NCBI GenBank assembly: GCA_024640685.1
Contig: JAHEEN010000004.1
Coordinates: 1-45,328, forward strand
Reading direction: 5' to 3'
Source: Rhodospirillaceae bacterium
Lineage (GTDB): Bacteria > Pseudomonadota > Gammaproteobacteria > Steroidobacterales > Rariloculaceae
Length of the DNA stretch: 45,328 nucleotides
Shown here: piece after piece, positions 3,749-34,128 of the stretch
How positions within the stretch are numbered: position 1 is the stretch's first letter
Layout: each line of letters opens with the position of its first letter
The notes under the pieces: model-generated
Databases searched by the model: none
Told to the model about the DNA's origin: nothing
Seen by the model: only the letters and a program-made list of their open reading frames with translations
Translations under genes and position numbers: made by a program

Positions 3749-4750
3749 CTACTGGAGAAATCGCGAGGCGTTCTCCGGATCGCAGTTGTAGCCGTGCAGC
3801 GTCAGGTGCGGTGAGTACTGCCACTGCAGGCTGCCGCTGAACGGCTCGGCCAAATAAACCGGGTCTTCTACGAAGACGTCGATCGTCATGCGATTGCCGT
3901 CGCCGGTCAATGCGTAACGCTCGATGGTGTGCTTTTGGTTGCTCGACGGCACGCCTTGCCCCGTGACCGACTGCTGCTCGGCGAACGCGACAGTGTCGAC
4001 GACGAGGGCATTGTCTTCCCAGCGGCCGATCGAATGGCCTTGCGGCGTCGGTTCGATATCGTCCGGATGTCCTCGGCCGTCCATATAGACGGTTCGTACG
4101 GCATCGAAGAACTCGCTGCGGATCGTCACGACATCGTCACCGAGCTCGATCCCGCTGAGGTAGAGCACGTTCGACATGACGATTCGCGGCGACTGCGGCG
4201 CAACGCACTCGACCGGACGCATGTCGGTCAAGTAGCTGTAGTCGGCTTTTGCGCGCTGGCCGGCGGGCGTCAGCGCCGTCGCGTTCAAAGCATCGGAGAA
4301 CGCCGAGATCGACTCCGGCACGCCTCGCCAGACGCCCGCGATCGTATCGGTCGTTGCGTCGCGCTGCTCGGGTGCGCTGTGGACCTGCGCTAGAACCGTG
4401 CCGTCCTGCTTCGTCAACGACAGCAAGATGACGCCGTAGTATCCGGCGCGTTTGTCCGGGTGGCCGCGCACAGCGACGATATCTCCCGGTTCCAGCGAGT
4501 CCGGCGTCCAGCCGCTGCGCGCCATGATCGGCGTCGCGCCGGTCTCGACGAGCCATTCGACGGTTTCGCCGGCCGCGTTGACCGACTCGACCGTGACGTA
4601 GACGTGCGGGTTACGCCAGCCGTACTCGGTCACGACACCTTCGAACGCCGCCACTGAGTTGGCGTCGTAGCCGGCCTCACTGTGATGGGCCGTGGCGGGC
4701 AGACTGGCGAGCGCGCCTGCGAGGGCGCCGAGAATACATCTATAATTCAT
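3749..4750 (-). CDS. Secreted DUF6152-domain protein fused to a C-terminal beta-rich domain
   Basis: Signal + AHHS, W.NPH and GW...SL.PGD.V motifs. C-terminal part has GHSIGRWE..LVVDT and ends in CDPE. Confidence 0.8.
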   Translation of the reverse strand: MNYRCILGALAGALASLPATAHHSEAGYDANSVAAFEGVVTEYGWRNPHVYVTVESVNAAGETVEWLVETGATPIMARSGWTPDSLEPGDIVAVRGHPDKRAGYYGVILLSLTKQDGTVLAQVHSAPEQRDATTDTIAGVWRGVPESISAFSDALNATALTPAGQRAKADYSYLTDMRPVECVAPQSPRIVMSNVLYLSGIELGDDVVTIRSEFFDAVRTVYMDGRGHPDDIEPTPQGHSIGRWEDNALVVDTVAFAEQQSVTGQGVPSSNQKHTIERYALTGDGNRMTIDVFVEDPVYLAEPFSGSLQWQYSPHLTLHGYNCDPENASRFLQ

Positions 4751-28615: not shown

Positions 28616-29995
28616 TCAGCCTGCAAGTTTGCGAACGTCGGCCGAGGCGGTCAGCACGCCTTCGGCGAGGTAACGTTCGTGGTTCTTCTCGATGTCCGCA
28701 AGGTTGTACAGATAGTTGACCATGATGCCGGCTGATCGCTCTAGGCCGGCCGGTGACGGATCGGCAGCCCAATTGATTTGCTGGAGGCTTGCCCCATTGC
28801 TCATATGAAAACGCGTAACAGGGTCGAGCGGCTGGTCGCCGGCCTTGGCGTTCAACAGGTAGTAGCTACAGAGCCGCATCAAGCTTGCGCGTTGCCCGTC
28901 AGGGACGTCGTCGAGGTCCAGCTTAACCGACTGAGCCAGAAATTCGCGGGCGGTCTCGATATCGGCTGCCCGCGCTTCGGGCAACGAATCCAGCTGCACG
29001 CTCTCGAGCCAGCGCCGAAAACCTGGAACCGGCGACAGCGTTACGAACGTCTTGATGTTGTCGAGATCGCGTCGCAGCTCTTCGATGACTTGCTTGAGCA
29101 GGAAGTGGCCGAAGGAAATGCCCTGCAAGCCGTGATGGCAGTTGCTGATCGAGTAGAACACCGCCGTATCGGCATGACGTGGATTCGTAGTCGATCGATC
29201 GGGCGCCAGCAGCGGCCGAATCGCGTTTGCAGTACTGTCTGTCAACGCGACCTCGACGAAGATCAGCGGGTCGTCCGGCATCGCCGGATGAAAAAATGCG
29301 AAGCAGCGACGATCGTCAGCGAGCCGCGCGCGCAGATCGTCCCAGCCGTTGATCTCGTGAACGGCCTCGTACTCAATGATTTTTTCGAGCACGTTGGCCG
29401 ACGACGTCCAGTCGATGCGCTCCATGACGAGGAACCCGCGATTGAACCATGCGATCAACAGATGGCGAAGGTCGGTGTCGAGCGGACGCAGATGCGGACG
29501 CTCGCCAAGGACGTTGAGTAGGTCGCTGCGCAGCCTGACGAGGCGGCCGATTCCGTCAGGCACCATGTTGAGGCGTCGAAAGAGCTTCCGTCGCGGTGCC
29601 TCGACAGCTTTCGCCAACGCCGCTAGCGTCGTGGCGTCCGCAGCGTCCAAGTAGGCCGTTGCAGCATTGGCTATCGTCTCGTGGTCGGCCTCGAACTGCG
29701 CGACCAGCAGCTCGAAGAACTCGAGTCGGTCAGATACCGACAGTTTCTGGTACAGCGACAGAATCTCGTCGGCCAGCGCGAGGCCGGAGGCTTCGCCACG
29801 ATGGTCGAGTAGCTGCCGGCACAACGCGCCCAAGTGCTCGGCTGGACGGTCCTTGGCGCGATCACCGTTCCACGTCCGCGGCAGCAAACCACGGCCGACA
29901 TCGAGAATAGAGGACAGAATCCGCCGAAATGCGTCAGGACGGCGTACCGCGCGAATCGCGCCGGTGTCGTCTAAATGGGGGTTGGGCGTGCTCAT
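28616..29995 (-). CDS. Malonyl-CoA decarboxylase
   Basis: WFNRGFL, EKIIEYEAVHEI, DRRCFAFFHP, FYSISNC, TLSPVPGF and DPVTRFHMSNGA motifs. Confidence 0.93.
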   Translation of the reverse strand: MSTPNPHLDDTGAIRAVRRPDAFRRILSSILDVGRGLLPRTWNGDRAKDRPAEHLGALCRQLLDHRGEASGLALADEILSLYQKLSVSDRLEFFELLVAQFEADHETIANAATAYLDAADATTLAALAKAVEAPRRKLFRRLNMVPDGIGRLVRLRSDLLNVLGERPHLRPLDTDLRHLLIAWFNRGFLVMERIDWTSSANVLEKIIEYEAVHEINGWDDLRARLADDRRCFAFFHPAMPDDPLIFVEVALTDSTANAIRPLLAPDRSTTNPRHADTAVFYSISNCHHGLQGISFGHFLLKQVIEELRRDLDNIKTFVTLSPVPGFRRWLESVQLDSLPEARAADIETAREFLAQSVKLDLDDVPDGQRASLMRLCSYYLLNAKAGDQPLDPVTRFHMSNGASLQQINWAADPSPAGLERSAGIMVNYLYNLADIEKNHERYLAEGVLTASADVRKLAG

Positions 29996-30094
29996 TCCGT
30001 TGCGCCTAGCATGCTCGGTTCCATCCGGCTTACCGCATGGCGCGATATTGTATAACGCCGATTGTGACGGAAGCTCGACCAGTCCCGCATTTTT

Positions 30095-31402
30095 TCAGTC
30101 GGGATCGGCATCGAGTGCGGCTATCTTGCGATACAACGCGCGCTCGCTGATGCCGAGGCGCTGCGCCAGCTCACGGCGCCCGACCTTGGTCGTTGCGAGC
30201 ACTTTTCGCAGATAACGTCGTTCGTGCAGATCGAGCGGCTCGACATCGACGGTCGGTCCGATCGACGCGGTTGCTTCACTGTGCCGTTGAAGCGGAGGTA
30301 GATGAGTGACGTCGATGCAGTCGTCGTCGGCCAGCAACAGCGCACGCTCAATGATGTTTCTGAGCTCACGCACGTTGCCTGGGAAGTCGTGCTGCTCGAG
30401 CGCCGCAAGTGCCTCATCGCTGATACGCATATTGTTTGCGCCGAGACGTCTGAGTATCGACGTCGCTAGTCGCTCGATATCCTCGACGCGCTCGCGCAGT
30501 GGCGGCAGCTCGACCTCCAGCACGTTCAGTCGGTAGTACAGATCCTCGCGAAACGTACCAGCTGCGACCATGTCCCGCAGGGATCGATGGGTCGCACAGA
30601 TCAAGCGAAAGTCGGCTTCCTTCCACTCGGTGCCACCGACGGGTCGGTAGCGACGCGTCTCGAGTAGCCGCAACAGCTTGACCTGCTCGGCCGGCGGCAC
30701 CTCGCCGATCTCATCGAGAAAGAGCGTGCCGCCGTTGGCAGCATCGACGAGGCCGTCGCGTCGGCTCGTCGCTCCGGTGAAGGCGCCTTTCTCGTGCCCG
30801 AATAGCTCACTTTCAAATAATGTCTCGGGCAAGCCGGCGCACTCGACCGGAACGAACGGCTTGTCGCGGCGTTGGCTCAAGCGATGAATAGTTTGCGCGA
30901 CGAGCTCCTTGCCGGTCCCGGTCTCGCCGAGCAGCATCACGGTCGTTTCCGATGGCGCCGCGCGCTCGACGAGCGCGAGCATGTGCTGAAATGCAGGCGA
31001 CTCGCCGACGAGTCGATCGGCCGCGGAGTCGACGCTGCCCGCGTCCGATGGTCGCATCCGCTCTAAGAAATACTTGATCTGACCGCTCGTCGGGTCCTTG
31101 ACGGGCCACATCTCGACGTTGACGTACTCCTTGCCGCGCGGCGTATGGTGAATGTGCAGCACGCGCGAGTTTCTACCCGTTGTCTGACTGTGCTTCAGCG
31201 GGCAAGTTTCACCGGCAAGGTCACACGGTTGCGTATAGCCATGGGATACCTCATAGCAGTGGTGCCGCCCTTGATCGATGTGATCCCCATAGGTATCGCG
31301 ATAGGCGTCGTTGGCGACGAGCACGCGGTAGTCGAGTCCGAGCAGGATCGCCGGCTCATCGAGGCAGTTCAGTAGCCCCTTCAGATCGTCCGAGTCGGTC
31401 AT
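30095..31402 (-). CDS. Sigma54-dependent activator with PAS domain, FisR-like (persulfide-responsive type)
   Basis: PAS domain with C-x10-C-x6-C ([20 protein letters not shown]). [21 protein letters not shown] and Fis-type HTH. Alternative start at 31420. Confidence 0.88.
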
Positions 31403-31405
31403 AGC

Positions 31406-31438
31406 TGCCAATTTTGGCATAGTCTGCCAAATTTGACA
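31406..31438. promoter_or_regulatory. Tandem palindromic enhancer (UAS) sites for the sigma54 activator
   Basis: TGCCAATTTTGGCA (31406-31419) and TGCCAAATTTGACA (31425-31438), ~80-110 bp upstream of the -24 box. Confidence 0.7.
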
Positions 31439-31515
31439 TGCCTGAAACGGCAGAAATGGCTGGCTAGGTGTCAGCTCCTCGATCTAACTTGCTGTTTTTA
31501 ATAGGCACGAGAGAT

Positions 31516-31531
31516 TGGCACGAAACACGCA
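31516..31531 (+). promoter_or_regulatory. Sigma54 (-24/-12) promoter
   Basis: TGGCACGAAACACGCA has exact GG-N10-GC spacing and is divergent from the activator. An IHF-like box lies at 31485-31497. Confidence 0.78.
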
Positions 31532-31604
31532 TTAGACAGCATAGAGGTTAACAGACCGGTCCGGCGATTCCTGCTGCCGGCGGTCACGACGACAGGAGAC
31601 AACG

Positions 31605-31694
31605 ATGTTACAACTCAAGAGCATGATCGGGCTGATGGTCTACACCGCAGTATTGGGCGTCGCCGTGACAGCTGGCGCCATCCTGATGGCCTGA
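31605..31694 (+). CDS. 29-aa hydrophobic small protein MLQLKSMIGLMVYTAVLGVAVTAGAILMA
   Basis: AGGAGA RBS then ATG. Single TM-like stretch. Lies between the sigma54 promoter and a terminator. Confidence 0.7.
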   Translation: MLQLKSMIGLMVYTAVLGVAVTAGAILMA

Positions 31695-31758
31695 GATCGA
31701 GCCCCCGGCCGCTGCCAGCGTGTGGCGGTTTCGATCCCGAATCCAATGATCCCCCATT

Positions 31759-31787
31759 GCCGGCGCATGGAAGCGCCGGTTTTTTTT
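31759..31787 (+). terminator. Rho-independent terminator after the small peptide gene
   Basis: GCCGGCGC-ATGGAA-GCGCCGGT hairpin followed by a T-run. Confidence 0.8.
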
Positions 31788-31810
31788 GAGGGGTAAATCG
31801 CGATCGATCC

Positions 31811-31838
31811 AAAAAAATGCCCGGAGCAAAGTCCGGGC
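31811..31838 (-). terminator. Rho-independent terminator of the dps/Prx-Grx transcript
   Basis: GCCCGGA-N6-TCCGGGC hairpin with A7 on the + strand (U-tract on the - strand). Confidence 0.8.
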
Positions 31839-31867
31839 GAGTAGGGGGAGCTAGGAGAAAGAAGACG

Positions 31868-32611
31868 TCAGGCCGCGCGTCGGTGTCCAAGCCAGTCGGC
31901 GAGTGTGTCGGCGCCGCCAATCCGCTCGCCATCGACGAAAATCTGTGGATAGCTGAGGTCCTGCGAGACCGCACGCAGTGTCCGGTCGCTGAAGTCGCGA
32001 TTGAGCACGAGCTCGTCGAACTCGATACCAGCGTCGCGCAGCATGCCTTTCGCACGGACACAATGCGGGCAACCGTCGCGTGTAAAAACTGCAACGTCGA
32101 GCGGTTTCTGCGCGCTGGGCGCGAGATACTCGAGCATCGTATCGGCGTCGGAGGCGACGAACGGGTCGCCGGGCTCTTGCGGTTCGATGAACATCTTCTC
32201 GATGACGCCGTTTTTGACGAGCATCGAGTAGCGCCACGATCGCTGTCCGAAGCCGAGGTCTTCCTTGCCGACGAGCATGCCCATGCCGCGCGTGAAGTCG
32301 CCGTTGCCGTCAGGCAGGAACGTCACGTTGTCCGCATGTTGAGCGAGCTTCCACTCGTTCATGACGAATGCGTCGTTGACCGAGACGCAGACGATGTCAT
32401 CGACGCCGTGTTGGCGAAACTCGCGTGCGAGCTGATTGTAGCGAGGCACGTGCGATGACGAGCACGTCGGCGTAAATGCGCCCGGTAGCGAGAAAACGAC
32501 GACAGTTTTGCCGCCGAAGATGCCGTCGCTCGTGCGCTCGATCCAGGCGTGGTCATCGCGCGTCTTAAATGTGCAGTCCGGGATGCGGGTCCCTTCGCGG
32601 TTCTCGAACAT
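31868..32611 (-). CDS. pgdx: Hybrid peroxiredoxin (Prx5)-glutaredoxin
   Basis: [18 protein letters not shown] and RSWRYSM motifs. C-terminal Grx domain with CPHC and YPQIF. Confidence 0.93.
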
Positions 32612-32647
32612 TGTGAATCCTCCGAGTTTCAGTCGTTGTAAATCGAG

Positions 32648-33118
32648 TTAGTGGTCGAGCATGCTGCGCAGCATCCACGCGTTCTTCTCGTGGATCTGCA
32701 TGCGTTGCGTTAGAAGGTCCGCGGTTGGCTCGTCGTTGGCGCGCTCCGCGGCTGGAAACGCTTCACGGGCCGTGCGCACGACGGCTTCTTGGCCGGCGAC
32801 GAGCGCGCGAATCATGTCCTCGGCATTCTCGTCGCCGCTGGCCTCGTCGACCGAAGCGAGCTGCGCGAACGCCGCATACGAGCCGGGTGCCTTGACGCCG
32901 AGGGTGCGGATACGTTCGGCGATCTCGTCGACGGCTGTCGCAAGCTCCGTGTACTGCGTCTCGAACATCGTATGCAGTGTGTTGAAGTGCGGACCCGTCA
33001 CGTTCCAGTGATAGTTGTGGGTCTTCAAATACAGCGTGTAGCTATCGGCAAGCAGCCTGGACAGACCGCCTGCTATAGCCTCGCGGTCCATGGTGTCGAT
33101 GCCGATTTCAATATTCAT
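32648..33118 (-). CDS. dps: Dps DNA-protection ferritin-like protein
   Basis: [30 protein letters not shown] and HEK.AWML motifs. Confidence 0.95.
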
Positions 33119-33159
33119 CTGTGCTCCTCCGGGTCGATTCTGTCGATGCGGAGTAGTCT

Positions 33160-33222
33160 AGATTGAGTATAAAAATCTGTAAAACAGAATAAATAGGAAA
33201 TAATATGCTATAAAAACGATCA
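33160..33222. promoter_or_regulatory. AT-rich divergent oxyR/dps promoter, probable OxyR site
   Basis: Sharp AT-rich island containing ATAG/CTAT tetramers, between oxyR and dps. Confidence 0.5.
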
Positions 33223-34128
33223 ATGCGCATCCCGACTGTCAAGCAGATCCAGTATTTCCTCGCGCTCGCCGAGCACGAGCACTTCGGCCGCGCGGCGGCG
33301 GCGTCGTTCGTCTCGCAGTCCGCATTCAGCGCTGCGATCAAGGAGCTCGAAGCGACGTTAGGTGTGCAACTCGTCGATCGGACGAATCGCTCGGTCACGG
33401 TGACTGCGATGGGGCAACGCATTGCGGCGCAGGGCCGCCATTGCGTGGAGGCGCTCGAGGAACTCGTCGAGATCGCTCAAGGGCAGCGCAATCCGCTCGA
33501 AGGGGAGTTGCGGCTCGGCGTCATTCCGACGATTGCGCCATTCCTGCTGCCGACGCTGCTGCCATTGCTGCGGCAACGCTATCCGAAGCTACGGGCACTT
33601 TTGACCGAGGCGCAGACCGTGCCGCTGCACGAGAGCTTGTTGAACGGCGAGCTCGACGTGCTGCTGCTCGCGTTGCCGTTCGAGCTGCGCGGCACGGAAA
33701 CGAAAGCGCTGTTTGACGACAGGTTCTTGCTGGCCTTTCGCGACGGGACGACGCTAATCGATGCCGAGCGCTACCGTCTCGAGTCCGTCCCGGCAGAGTC
33801 CGTGTTGCTGCTGGGCGAAGGGCACTGCTTGCGCGGCCATGCGCTCGAGGCGTGTCGGTTGCGAGGCACAGAGAAACTGAGCCCGGTCTCGGCGACGAGC
33901 CTTTTGACGCTCGTCGAGATGGTCGATGCCGACCTCGGCATCACGTTTTTGCCGGAAATGTCTTTGGGCTCGACGTTGCTAGCGCACACGCAGTTGCGTC
34001 TGCAGCCGATACCAGGTGGGGGCGAGCGAACGATTGGGCTTGCGTGGCGCAAGGGCAGTGCCCGTGCCGCGGAGTTTGCGCTTCTGGGCGAGTTCATCGC
34101 CGCGCACGCCGGGCTAGATTCTACATAA
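33223..34128 (+). CDS. oxyR: H2O2-responsive LysR regulator OxyR
   Basis: HFGRAA HTH, GVIPTIAPFLLP, and the redox Cys pair in EGHCLRGHALEAC. Divergent from dps. Confidence 0.9.
   Translation: MRIPTVKQIQYFLALAEHEHFGRAAAASFVSQSAFSAAIKELEATLGVQLVDRTNRSVTVTAMGQRIAAQGRHCVEALEELVEIAQGQRNPLEGELRLGVIPTIAPFLLPTLLPLLRQRYPKLRALLTEAQTVPLHESLLNGELDVLLLALPFELRGTETKALFDDRFLLAFRDGTTLIDAERYRLESVPAESVLLLGEGHCLRGHALEACRLRGTEKLSPVSATSLLTLVEMVDADLGITFLPEMSLGSTLLAHTQLRLQPIPGGGERTIGLAWRKGSARAAEFALLGEFIAAHAGLDST

Follow-up and report, generated by a model that had tools for sequence, protein, structure and literature searches.

FisR of Cupriavidus pinatubonensis senses sulfane sulfur by three conserved cysteines and forms a Cys53-Cys64 tetrasulfide, according to the parts of the two reports drawn on here (PMC9495516; PMC9774590). 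For Acinetobacter baumannii, the portion of the source used here describes FisR as a sigma54 activator encoded divergently from a sulfide-induced operon with pdo, sqr and tauE (PMC7315123). Here we analyse a 45,328-nucleotide (nt) stretch of contig JAHEEN010000004.1 (the window), in which a FisR-type gene stands divergent to a sigma54 unit for a peptide of 29 amino acids (aa). The unit of interest spans 30095-31787, the layout was read directly over 29800-32200, and the host genome (G000) is a 3.49-Mb assembly of 333 contigs that is 93% complete. To our knowledge, persulfide sensing of the FisR type has been described solely for the control of enzymes (pdo, sqr, tauE). What is new at this locus and its relatives is a conserved family of small, predicted membrane proteins that are the first, and in some cases the sole, product of this switch.

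The activator of the window resembles FisR of C. pinatubonensis JMP134, as far as the published parts consulted and a homologue in C. metallidurans CH34 allow the comparison, in its PAS sensor, the spacing of the cysteines, the AAA+ domain with GAFTGA motif, the Fis-type helix-turn-helix (HTH) and the divergent operator with -24/-12 promoter. It differs from the Cupriavidus regulator in its target, which is a 29-aa peptide and not pdo-sqr, with no sqr found in the assembly; persulfide sensing in the window is proposed by analogy. The pdo-sqr-tauE content of the A. baumannii operon, as given in the part of the report consulted, matches the operon type of many homologous loci. According to the same part, A. 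baumannii FisR lacks the regulatory-domain cysteines that the window protein has, and no small leading open reading frame (ORF) is mentioned there (PMC7315123).

The FisR-type regulator and its target unit

The fisR-like gene (30095..31402, minus strand; alternative in-frame ATG at 31420) encodes 435 aa with a PAS sensor, a sigma54 AAA+ domain and a Fis-type HTH. Pfam finds Sigma54_activat (1e-68), AAA_lid_14 and HTH_8, while the match to PAS_4 is weak, at 22.6 bits just under the cut-off of 23.1. NCBIfam matches reach only the AAA+ core that many enhancer-binding proteins have in common, and all stay below cut-offs. The GAFTGA motif is visible in the translation, as is the sensor motif C49-x10-C60-x6-C67, which bears out the FisR-like activator with a PAS C-x10-C-x6-C motif that the initial annotation had read from the letters. 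The cysteine triad is invariant in an alignment of 53 sensors, together with His54, His83 and His85 (53/53). A PAS fold of the sensor is supported by an AlphaFold model (predicted local distance difference test, pLDDT, 89.6; predicted template modelling score, pTM, 0.84), whose Foldseek matches are LOV and other PAS domains, e.g., the PAS domain of NifL, at template modelling (TM) scores of 0.6-0.7; by sequence, no PDB chain was found for the sensor domain at E ≤ 1. The homologue in C. metallidurans CH34, retrieved by a plasmid/chromid search, has a sensor that is 46% identical, carries its cysteines at positions 53, 64 and 71 from the start codon and faces a divergent pdo-like gene. In the host genome rpoN was found, as were eight sigma54-activator paralogues, and this sensor domain is present in just one of them. 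Taken together, the AAA+ domain with GAFTGA, the Fis-type HTH, the Cys53/64/71-like spacing and the divergent sigma54 promoter with operators support the assignment of the activator to the FisR type. The remaining trait of that type, the control of sulfide-oxidation genes (pdo, sqr), was not found in the host genome, where the unit holds the peptide alone.

To place the regulator among its relatives, a sensor-domain search of GTDB species genomes was used, which gave 176 relatives, of which 80 loci were analysed, mostly from marine or sediment Gammaproteobacteria. The content of the divergent strand was called by tblastn with reference proteins annotated via Pfam. In these 80 loci the divergent strand carries pdo in 54, cydA in 35 and one or both in 69, in agreement with the earlier claim that the sensor normally faces an enzyme operon; a DUF2202 lipoprotein and a PepSY_TM protein occur once each, and nine loci have none of the reference proteins. 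The 35 loci in which FisR-type sensors face cydAB operons, often in one unit with pdo, are L031, L037-L039, L042, L044-L050, L052, L053, L056, L059-L062, L065, L067-L072, L075-L080, L083, L085 and L086. This arrangement suggests a persulfide-controlled induction of the sulfide-tolerant oxidase and, if true, would link persulfide sensing to the choice of that oxidase.

Two palindromes of the type TGCCA-N4-TG(G/A)CA precede the activator gene: operator (upstream activating sequence) palindrome 1, TGCCAATTTTGGCA, at 31406-31419, at a distance of 4 nt from the start codon of fisR, and palindrome 2, TGCCAAATTTGACA, at 31425-31438. Across the 80 loci, the operator class TG(C/T)CA-N3-5-TG(G/A)CA occurs 63 times in the 19.2 kb upstream of activators and 16 times in the remaining 583 kb. 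This corresponds to 3.28/kb in the 240 nt before the activator start against 0.027/kb elsewhere (~120-fold), and 52 of the 80 loci have one site or more. Because they are enriched upstream of activator genes, the palindromes are family-specific operators and not chance occurrences. Since the operators abut the fisR start codon, autoregulation is likely. The gene has no clear Shine-Dalgarno sequence of its own, and the same is seen in G004, G019, G015 and G390; the arrangement of operator and start codon suggests either autoregulation or an unusual translation start of the sensor gene.

On the plus strand, the sigma54 promoter TGGCACGAAACACGCA (31516-31531) has GG and GC in the -24/-12 register, and its spacing predicts a transcription start at ~31542. 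An equivalent sigma54 promoter is present in most homologous loci. The Shine-Dalgarno sequence AGGAGA (31594-31599) lies 5 nt before the ATG at 31605, which opens the small ORF MLQLKSMIGLMVYTAVLGVAVTAGAILMA (31605..31694), and a purine-rich element of this kind precedes all 12 homologous small ORFs that were read. An intrinsic terminator (31759..31788), composed of an 8-bp GC-rich stem (31759-31780) and T8, closes a predicted monocistronic transcript of ~245 nt with ~65 nt of untranslated 3' sequence. The logic of operator and sigma54 promoter is textbook. All of these elements had been named in the initial annotation and were located, including the strong terminator and a unit that encodes only the 29-aa peptide. 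Beyond the terminator lies a convergent gene for a peroxiredoxin/glutaredoxin-type protein (Prx/Grx). An IHF-like (integration host factor) box had been named as well; no match to WATCAANNNNTTR with ≤1 mismatch lies between operators and promoter, and over the whole window such matches are no more frequent than in shuffled sequence.

Nowhere else in the 3.49-Mb assembly does the operator occur as a pair. Single palindromes were found at two other positions, both of them in ORFs and without a sigma54-like promoter at a distance of up to ~350 nt. Tblastn detected neither sqr nor tauE nor cydAB in the assembly. The sole close pdo homologue (contig C78, 20765-21637; L093 3260-4132, minus strand) is 63% identical to a FisR-linked PDO. 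It follows a molybdopterin oxidoreductase gene and a terminator, and neither a FisR operator nor a -24/-12 element precedes it. The initial proposal of a distal target (yeeE/yedE, sqr or pdo) is not supported: the genome scan returned no other operator with a sigma54 promoter.

A conserved family of small ORFs

The peptide is a single hydrophobic helix with one lysine near the N-terminus (Lys5), followed by 24 uncharged residues, which suggests an orientation with the N-terminus inside and almost no exposed loop. Homologous ORFs of 26-32 aa open the transcription unit at 14 distinct loci. In a survey of 41 related genomes, full-length orthologues of the activator besides that of G000 were found in G004, G019 and G015 only; in all three, an operator and promoter of the same type precede a homologue of the small ORF. 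Among the 80 genome loci, nine have a family member, three of them in these same genomes. Searching 401 genomes of the order in six frames with a profile added G390 and G261; the other order-wide matches are chance, because they have E ≥ 0.003 and lie inside long frames. Among 1.84 billion representative proteins, a profile search gave 17 matches at E ≤ 0.001, all of them short or upstream-extended calls of the small ORF, and the ten that were looked up are unnamed or "hypothetical protein". A degenerate DNA pattern scan of metagenome contigs gave 80 stretches, comprising three family members (two distinct loci) and 77 chance matches, and a scan of metagenome contigs with a 5-row peptide alignment gave 585 pattern matches, none of which passed tblastn. 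Five family peptides had no Pfam or NCBIfam match at E ≤ 10, the best hit of a PDB profile search with the peptide had E 0.18 and belonged to unrelated proteins, and the ESM Atlas returned unnamed clusters with a best score of 0.86, none reaching 0.9. Literature on FisR with cytochrome bd, or on small proteins connected with sigma54, persulfide and SQR, describes no such peptide, judged from listings, supplements aside. By gene order and homology, the peptide is one of a conserved family of small proteins, so far unannotated, whose gene typically opens FisR-type units.

What the members have in common is mainly the N-terminal motif M-x-x-[LIV]-K-[SN]-M-x-x-[LM]-M; the N-terminus is Met-rich, and M1, M7 and M11 are nearly invariant. 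The database peptide P0010 differs from the window peptide at 5 of 29 positions, all conservatively. In the subgroup linked to cydAB/pdo (aligned from L053, L059, L067, L076, L077, L091, P0002-P0004, P0015 and P0016), the helix contains an invariant T-A-x-x-C-W-x-x-W, whereas the window's subgroup (five genomes, 73-93% complete) lacks it and has T-[AG]-x-L-G instead. The two subgroups may represent two functional subtypes.

A FisR-type gene is divergently adjacent in 11 of the 14 family loci, and L141 has a FisR-type operator and sigma54 promoter without an adjacent activator. On the 3' side, the peptide is followed by cydA-cydB-pdo in five loci, where the spacer to the next gene is 44-62 nt, and by pdo, a gene with a BLH-phosphatase domain and sqr in one (L091). 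A DUF2202 lipoprotein (G004), a PepSY_TM protein (G019) and a DUF6152 protein (G261) follow in one locus each, and a secreted protein without a Pfam family in two. Three loci are solo, with nothing 3' of the peptide: the window, in which a convergent gene lies beyond the terminator, as well as G015 and G390, where the next genes are likewise convergent. The solo loci occur in two genera. The initial annotation had the peptide replace the enzyme operon. The gene orders indicate that it does not simply do so: it is a separate conserved first cistron, which stands alone in three loci.

Some details of these contexts are recorded here as observations in their own right. In metagenome loci L141 (2398-3273) and L176 (3595-4551), the peptide is followed by a secreted protein of ~290-320 aa and then by a Methyltrans_SAM gene, and L176 has a terminator-like hairpin 3' of the peptide, as in the window. 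In G261 (L099 1601-2200), the peptide homologue lies directly before the DUF6152 gene; FisR is absent, and the sequence ahead of the homologue looks like the 3' end of a TetR-type gene. The window itself encodes a DUF6152 protein at 3749-4750 on the minus strand. No peptide precedes the PepSY_TM homologue on contig C242.

Selection acts on the encoded protein. In the five cydAB-linked loci, nucleotide identity is 0.83 in the small ORF, equal to that of the first 90 nt of cydA, compared with 0.54 in the 5' untranslated region (UTR) and 0.52 in the spacer, and the differences in the small ORF are distributed over the codon positions as 35:12:109. Among close relatives, substitutions are mainly synonymous, with pairwise ratios of nonsynonymous to synonymous substitution rates (dN/dS) of 0.01-0.14, including 0.07 for L003 versus L004 of the window's subgroup. 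Two solo loci of one genus differ at a proportion of synonymous sites (pS) of 0.86 but of nonsynonymous sites (pN) of 0.16; hence, the solo state is kept by selection on the protein. These patterns identify the small ORF as a real gene under purifying selection, neither a stump nor a small RNA (sRNA). The possibility that it is the remnant of a deleted longer gene, raised at the outset, is answered by this range of dN/dS and by the homologues found beside FisR genes.

Candidate functions and competing explanations

We give a probability of roughly 55% to the reading that a FisR-type sensor fires the sigma54 promoter in response to sulfane sulfur and that the sole product is a 29-aa single-pass membrane effector. 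Sulfane sulfur would be sensed via Cys49, Cys60 and Cys67 of the PAS domain, the activator would bind the two palindromes abutting its own start codon and, together with sigma54, would fire the promoter to yield the terminated mRNA for the peptide. The peptide would insert in the inner membrane, with its N-terminus held inside by the single Lys5, and would most likely bind a larger membrane protein, respiratory/quinone-linked or envelope-facing, during sulfide stress. It might in this way tune a membrane complex, as the initial annotation proposed.

Several points weigh against this reading. At a genome completeness of 93%, the unassembled part could hold another FisR target. Two of the 14 contexts (L099; L176/L186) are without FisR or a FisR-type site nearby. 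The two peptide subgroups share mainly the N-terminal motif, and because T-A-x-x-C-W-x-x-W occurs in one subgroup only, function may differ between the groups. The window peptide can be compared only at a saturated synonymous distance (pS 0.60-0.81, pN 0.34-0.38). Finally, two metatranscriptome runs contain exact RNA contigs for prx/grx and dps, so the organism appears transcriptionally active in situ, and no RNA contig covers 31343-31897, which includes the small ORF; such a gap in contigs is uninformative rather than negative.

A more specific form of the effector reading is put forward tentatively. FisR and the peptide could constitute a minimal, self-contained sulfane-sulfur module, with the peptide as the protective output where sqr and cytochrome bd are not found. 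It might bind and shield or re-tune a sulfide-sensitive membrane machine, e.g., a haem-copper oxidase or another quinone-linked complex, and perform the same membrane task together with cydAB-pdo or pdo-sqr. None of the five genomes in the window's subgroup yielded cydA, and SQR is represented there by just two distant SQR-like flavoproteins with 25% identity. For the Cys-Trp subgroup, an accessory role at cytochrome bd is possible; it cannot apply in the host, because no cydA was found there. A complex prediction of CydA and CydB with a group B peptide (first row, the 40-aa upstream-extended ORF of L059) gave a score of 0.00 with a partner pLDDT <50 and, controls being absent, speaks neither for nor against binding. 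Membership of the family in the known small subunits of cytochrome bd is not supported: only 5 of 14 distinct loci precede cydAB, and cydA was not seen in the window's subgroup.

The small ORF is always the first cistron and in six loci lies directly before cydAB-pdo or pdo-sqr, its N-terminus is rich in methionine with the three nearly invariant positions, and in G004, the nearest relative within the genus, further genes follow at the place that is empty in the window. These features would also be expected of a leader, i.e., a cis-acting upstream ORF that affects mRNA stability, translational coupling or attenuation, in which case the enzymes would have been lost here, with a sensor and a functionless leader left. 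We regard this as unlikely. Solo loci were seen in more than one genus (two), the differences between two such loci are mostly synonymous, conservation extends over the whole peptide beyond any regulatory codon run, and the host retains an intact sensor gene. A transcription-attenuation leader in particular was rejected: neither a terminator nor an attenuator lies between the small ORF and the next gene in L002, L003, L076 and L091, and there is nothing to attenuate in the window because a convergent gene, and no gene on the same strand, follows the terminator.

Slightly less probable still is a stress-induced membrane toxin comparable to TisB, an SOS-induced membrane peptide. A toxin of this kind would depolarise the membrane and slow respiration and growth when sulfide poisons the oxidases, and it would fit 29 purely hydrophobic residues with one basic residue, tight stress-specific control and a monocistronic, terminated unit. 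However, family members are the first cistron of units in which they are co-transcribed with enzymes needed in quantity (cydAB-pdo), and no antisense RNA or antitoxin feature was seen at the locus; neither point is decisive.

To a similarly small degree we credit the alternative that in this lineage the signal is another one, such as peroxide, metal or thiol stress, and that the regulator is functionally part of the neighbouring oxyR-dps-prx/grx block. The gene adjoins those for Prx/Grx, Dps and an OxyR-like regulator, the three invariant histidines beside the three cysteines could bind a metal, and the assembly lacks a detectable sqr. The same invariant sensor residues occur, however, in homologues beside pdo, sqr or tauE, the prx and dps genes are convergent or form separate units with their own terminator, and this neighbourhood of the activator is not conserved in G004, G015, G019 and G390.

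That the transcript is mainly a base-pairing sRNA or a dual-function RNA, as the initial annotation allowed for and as a short, terminated, sigma54-driven transcript with its untranslated 3' sequence might suggest, is very improbable, since its fold does not stand out in stability from 200 shuffled versions (z -0.68), 45 of which are equally or more stable, it has no Rfam family at gathering score, and conservation in relatives tracks codons (0.52-0.54 in UTR and spacer versus 0.83 in the ORF).

With the single-pass effector as the preferred reading, an unannotated small-protein family would be added to the sulfide-stress response. Moreover, sensor, promoter and peptide make up a compact two-gene system for testing the function of a stress-induced microprotein.

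Neighbouring genes and known small membrane proteins

The Prx/Grx gene (31868-32611) is convergent with the small ORF and has its own terminator (31838-31819). Beyond it lie the genes for Dps and an OxyR-like LysR regulator, so that the block described in the initial annotation is present as claimed. Of the YeeE/YedE pair that had been placed at the start of the window, one half stands: a partial Sulf_transp (YeeE/YedE) ORF occupies 37-396 at the contig edge, with its upstream region off the contig end, while ORF 419-877, the supposed second member, has no Pfam match at 1e-4. A search of 29000-33500 with Rfam 15 gave four weak matches, none of which comes near its gathering score or falls on the small transcript. 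One of them, to Betaproteobacteria_toxic_sRNA at 31811-31860 on the minus strand (21.1 bits versus a gathering score of 50, E 0.58), consists of CU-rich boxes and the terminator 3' of Prx/Grx and may be only a 3' UTR and terminator. DNA nearly identical to 29900-33200 is present in sediment metagenome runs of several studies, and a DNA contig from another study spans 31438-31654 with one change, at 31469.

Among described small membrane proteins, CydX, CydH/YnhF and CydS are single-pass peptides of cytochrome bd, ~30-37 aa long and encoded with the cyd genes. The family resembles these small subunits in that five of its members sit directly upstream of cydA. It differs from them in having no sequence similarity (Pfam and NCBIfam at E ≤ 10; PDB best E 0.18), in the position of its ORF upstream and not downstream of cydAB, and in that it also precedes pdo-sqr without cydAB. 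A second comparison is offered by PmrR, YncL, MgtS, MgrB and AcrZ, which have <50 aa and one transmembrane helix, are each controlled by one stress regulator and bind a larger membrane protein. In the ESM Atlas search with the peptide, YncL scored 0.81 and PmrR 0.80, values that serve as leads only. The family has no detectable homology to these five proteins, and its regulator is a sigma54 enhancer-binding protein. If the effector reading is true, the peptide would represent a new class of sulfide-stress membrane effector.

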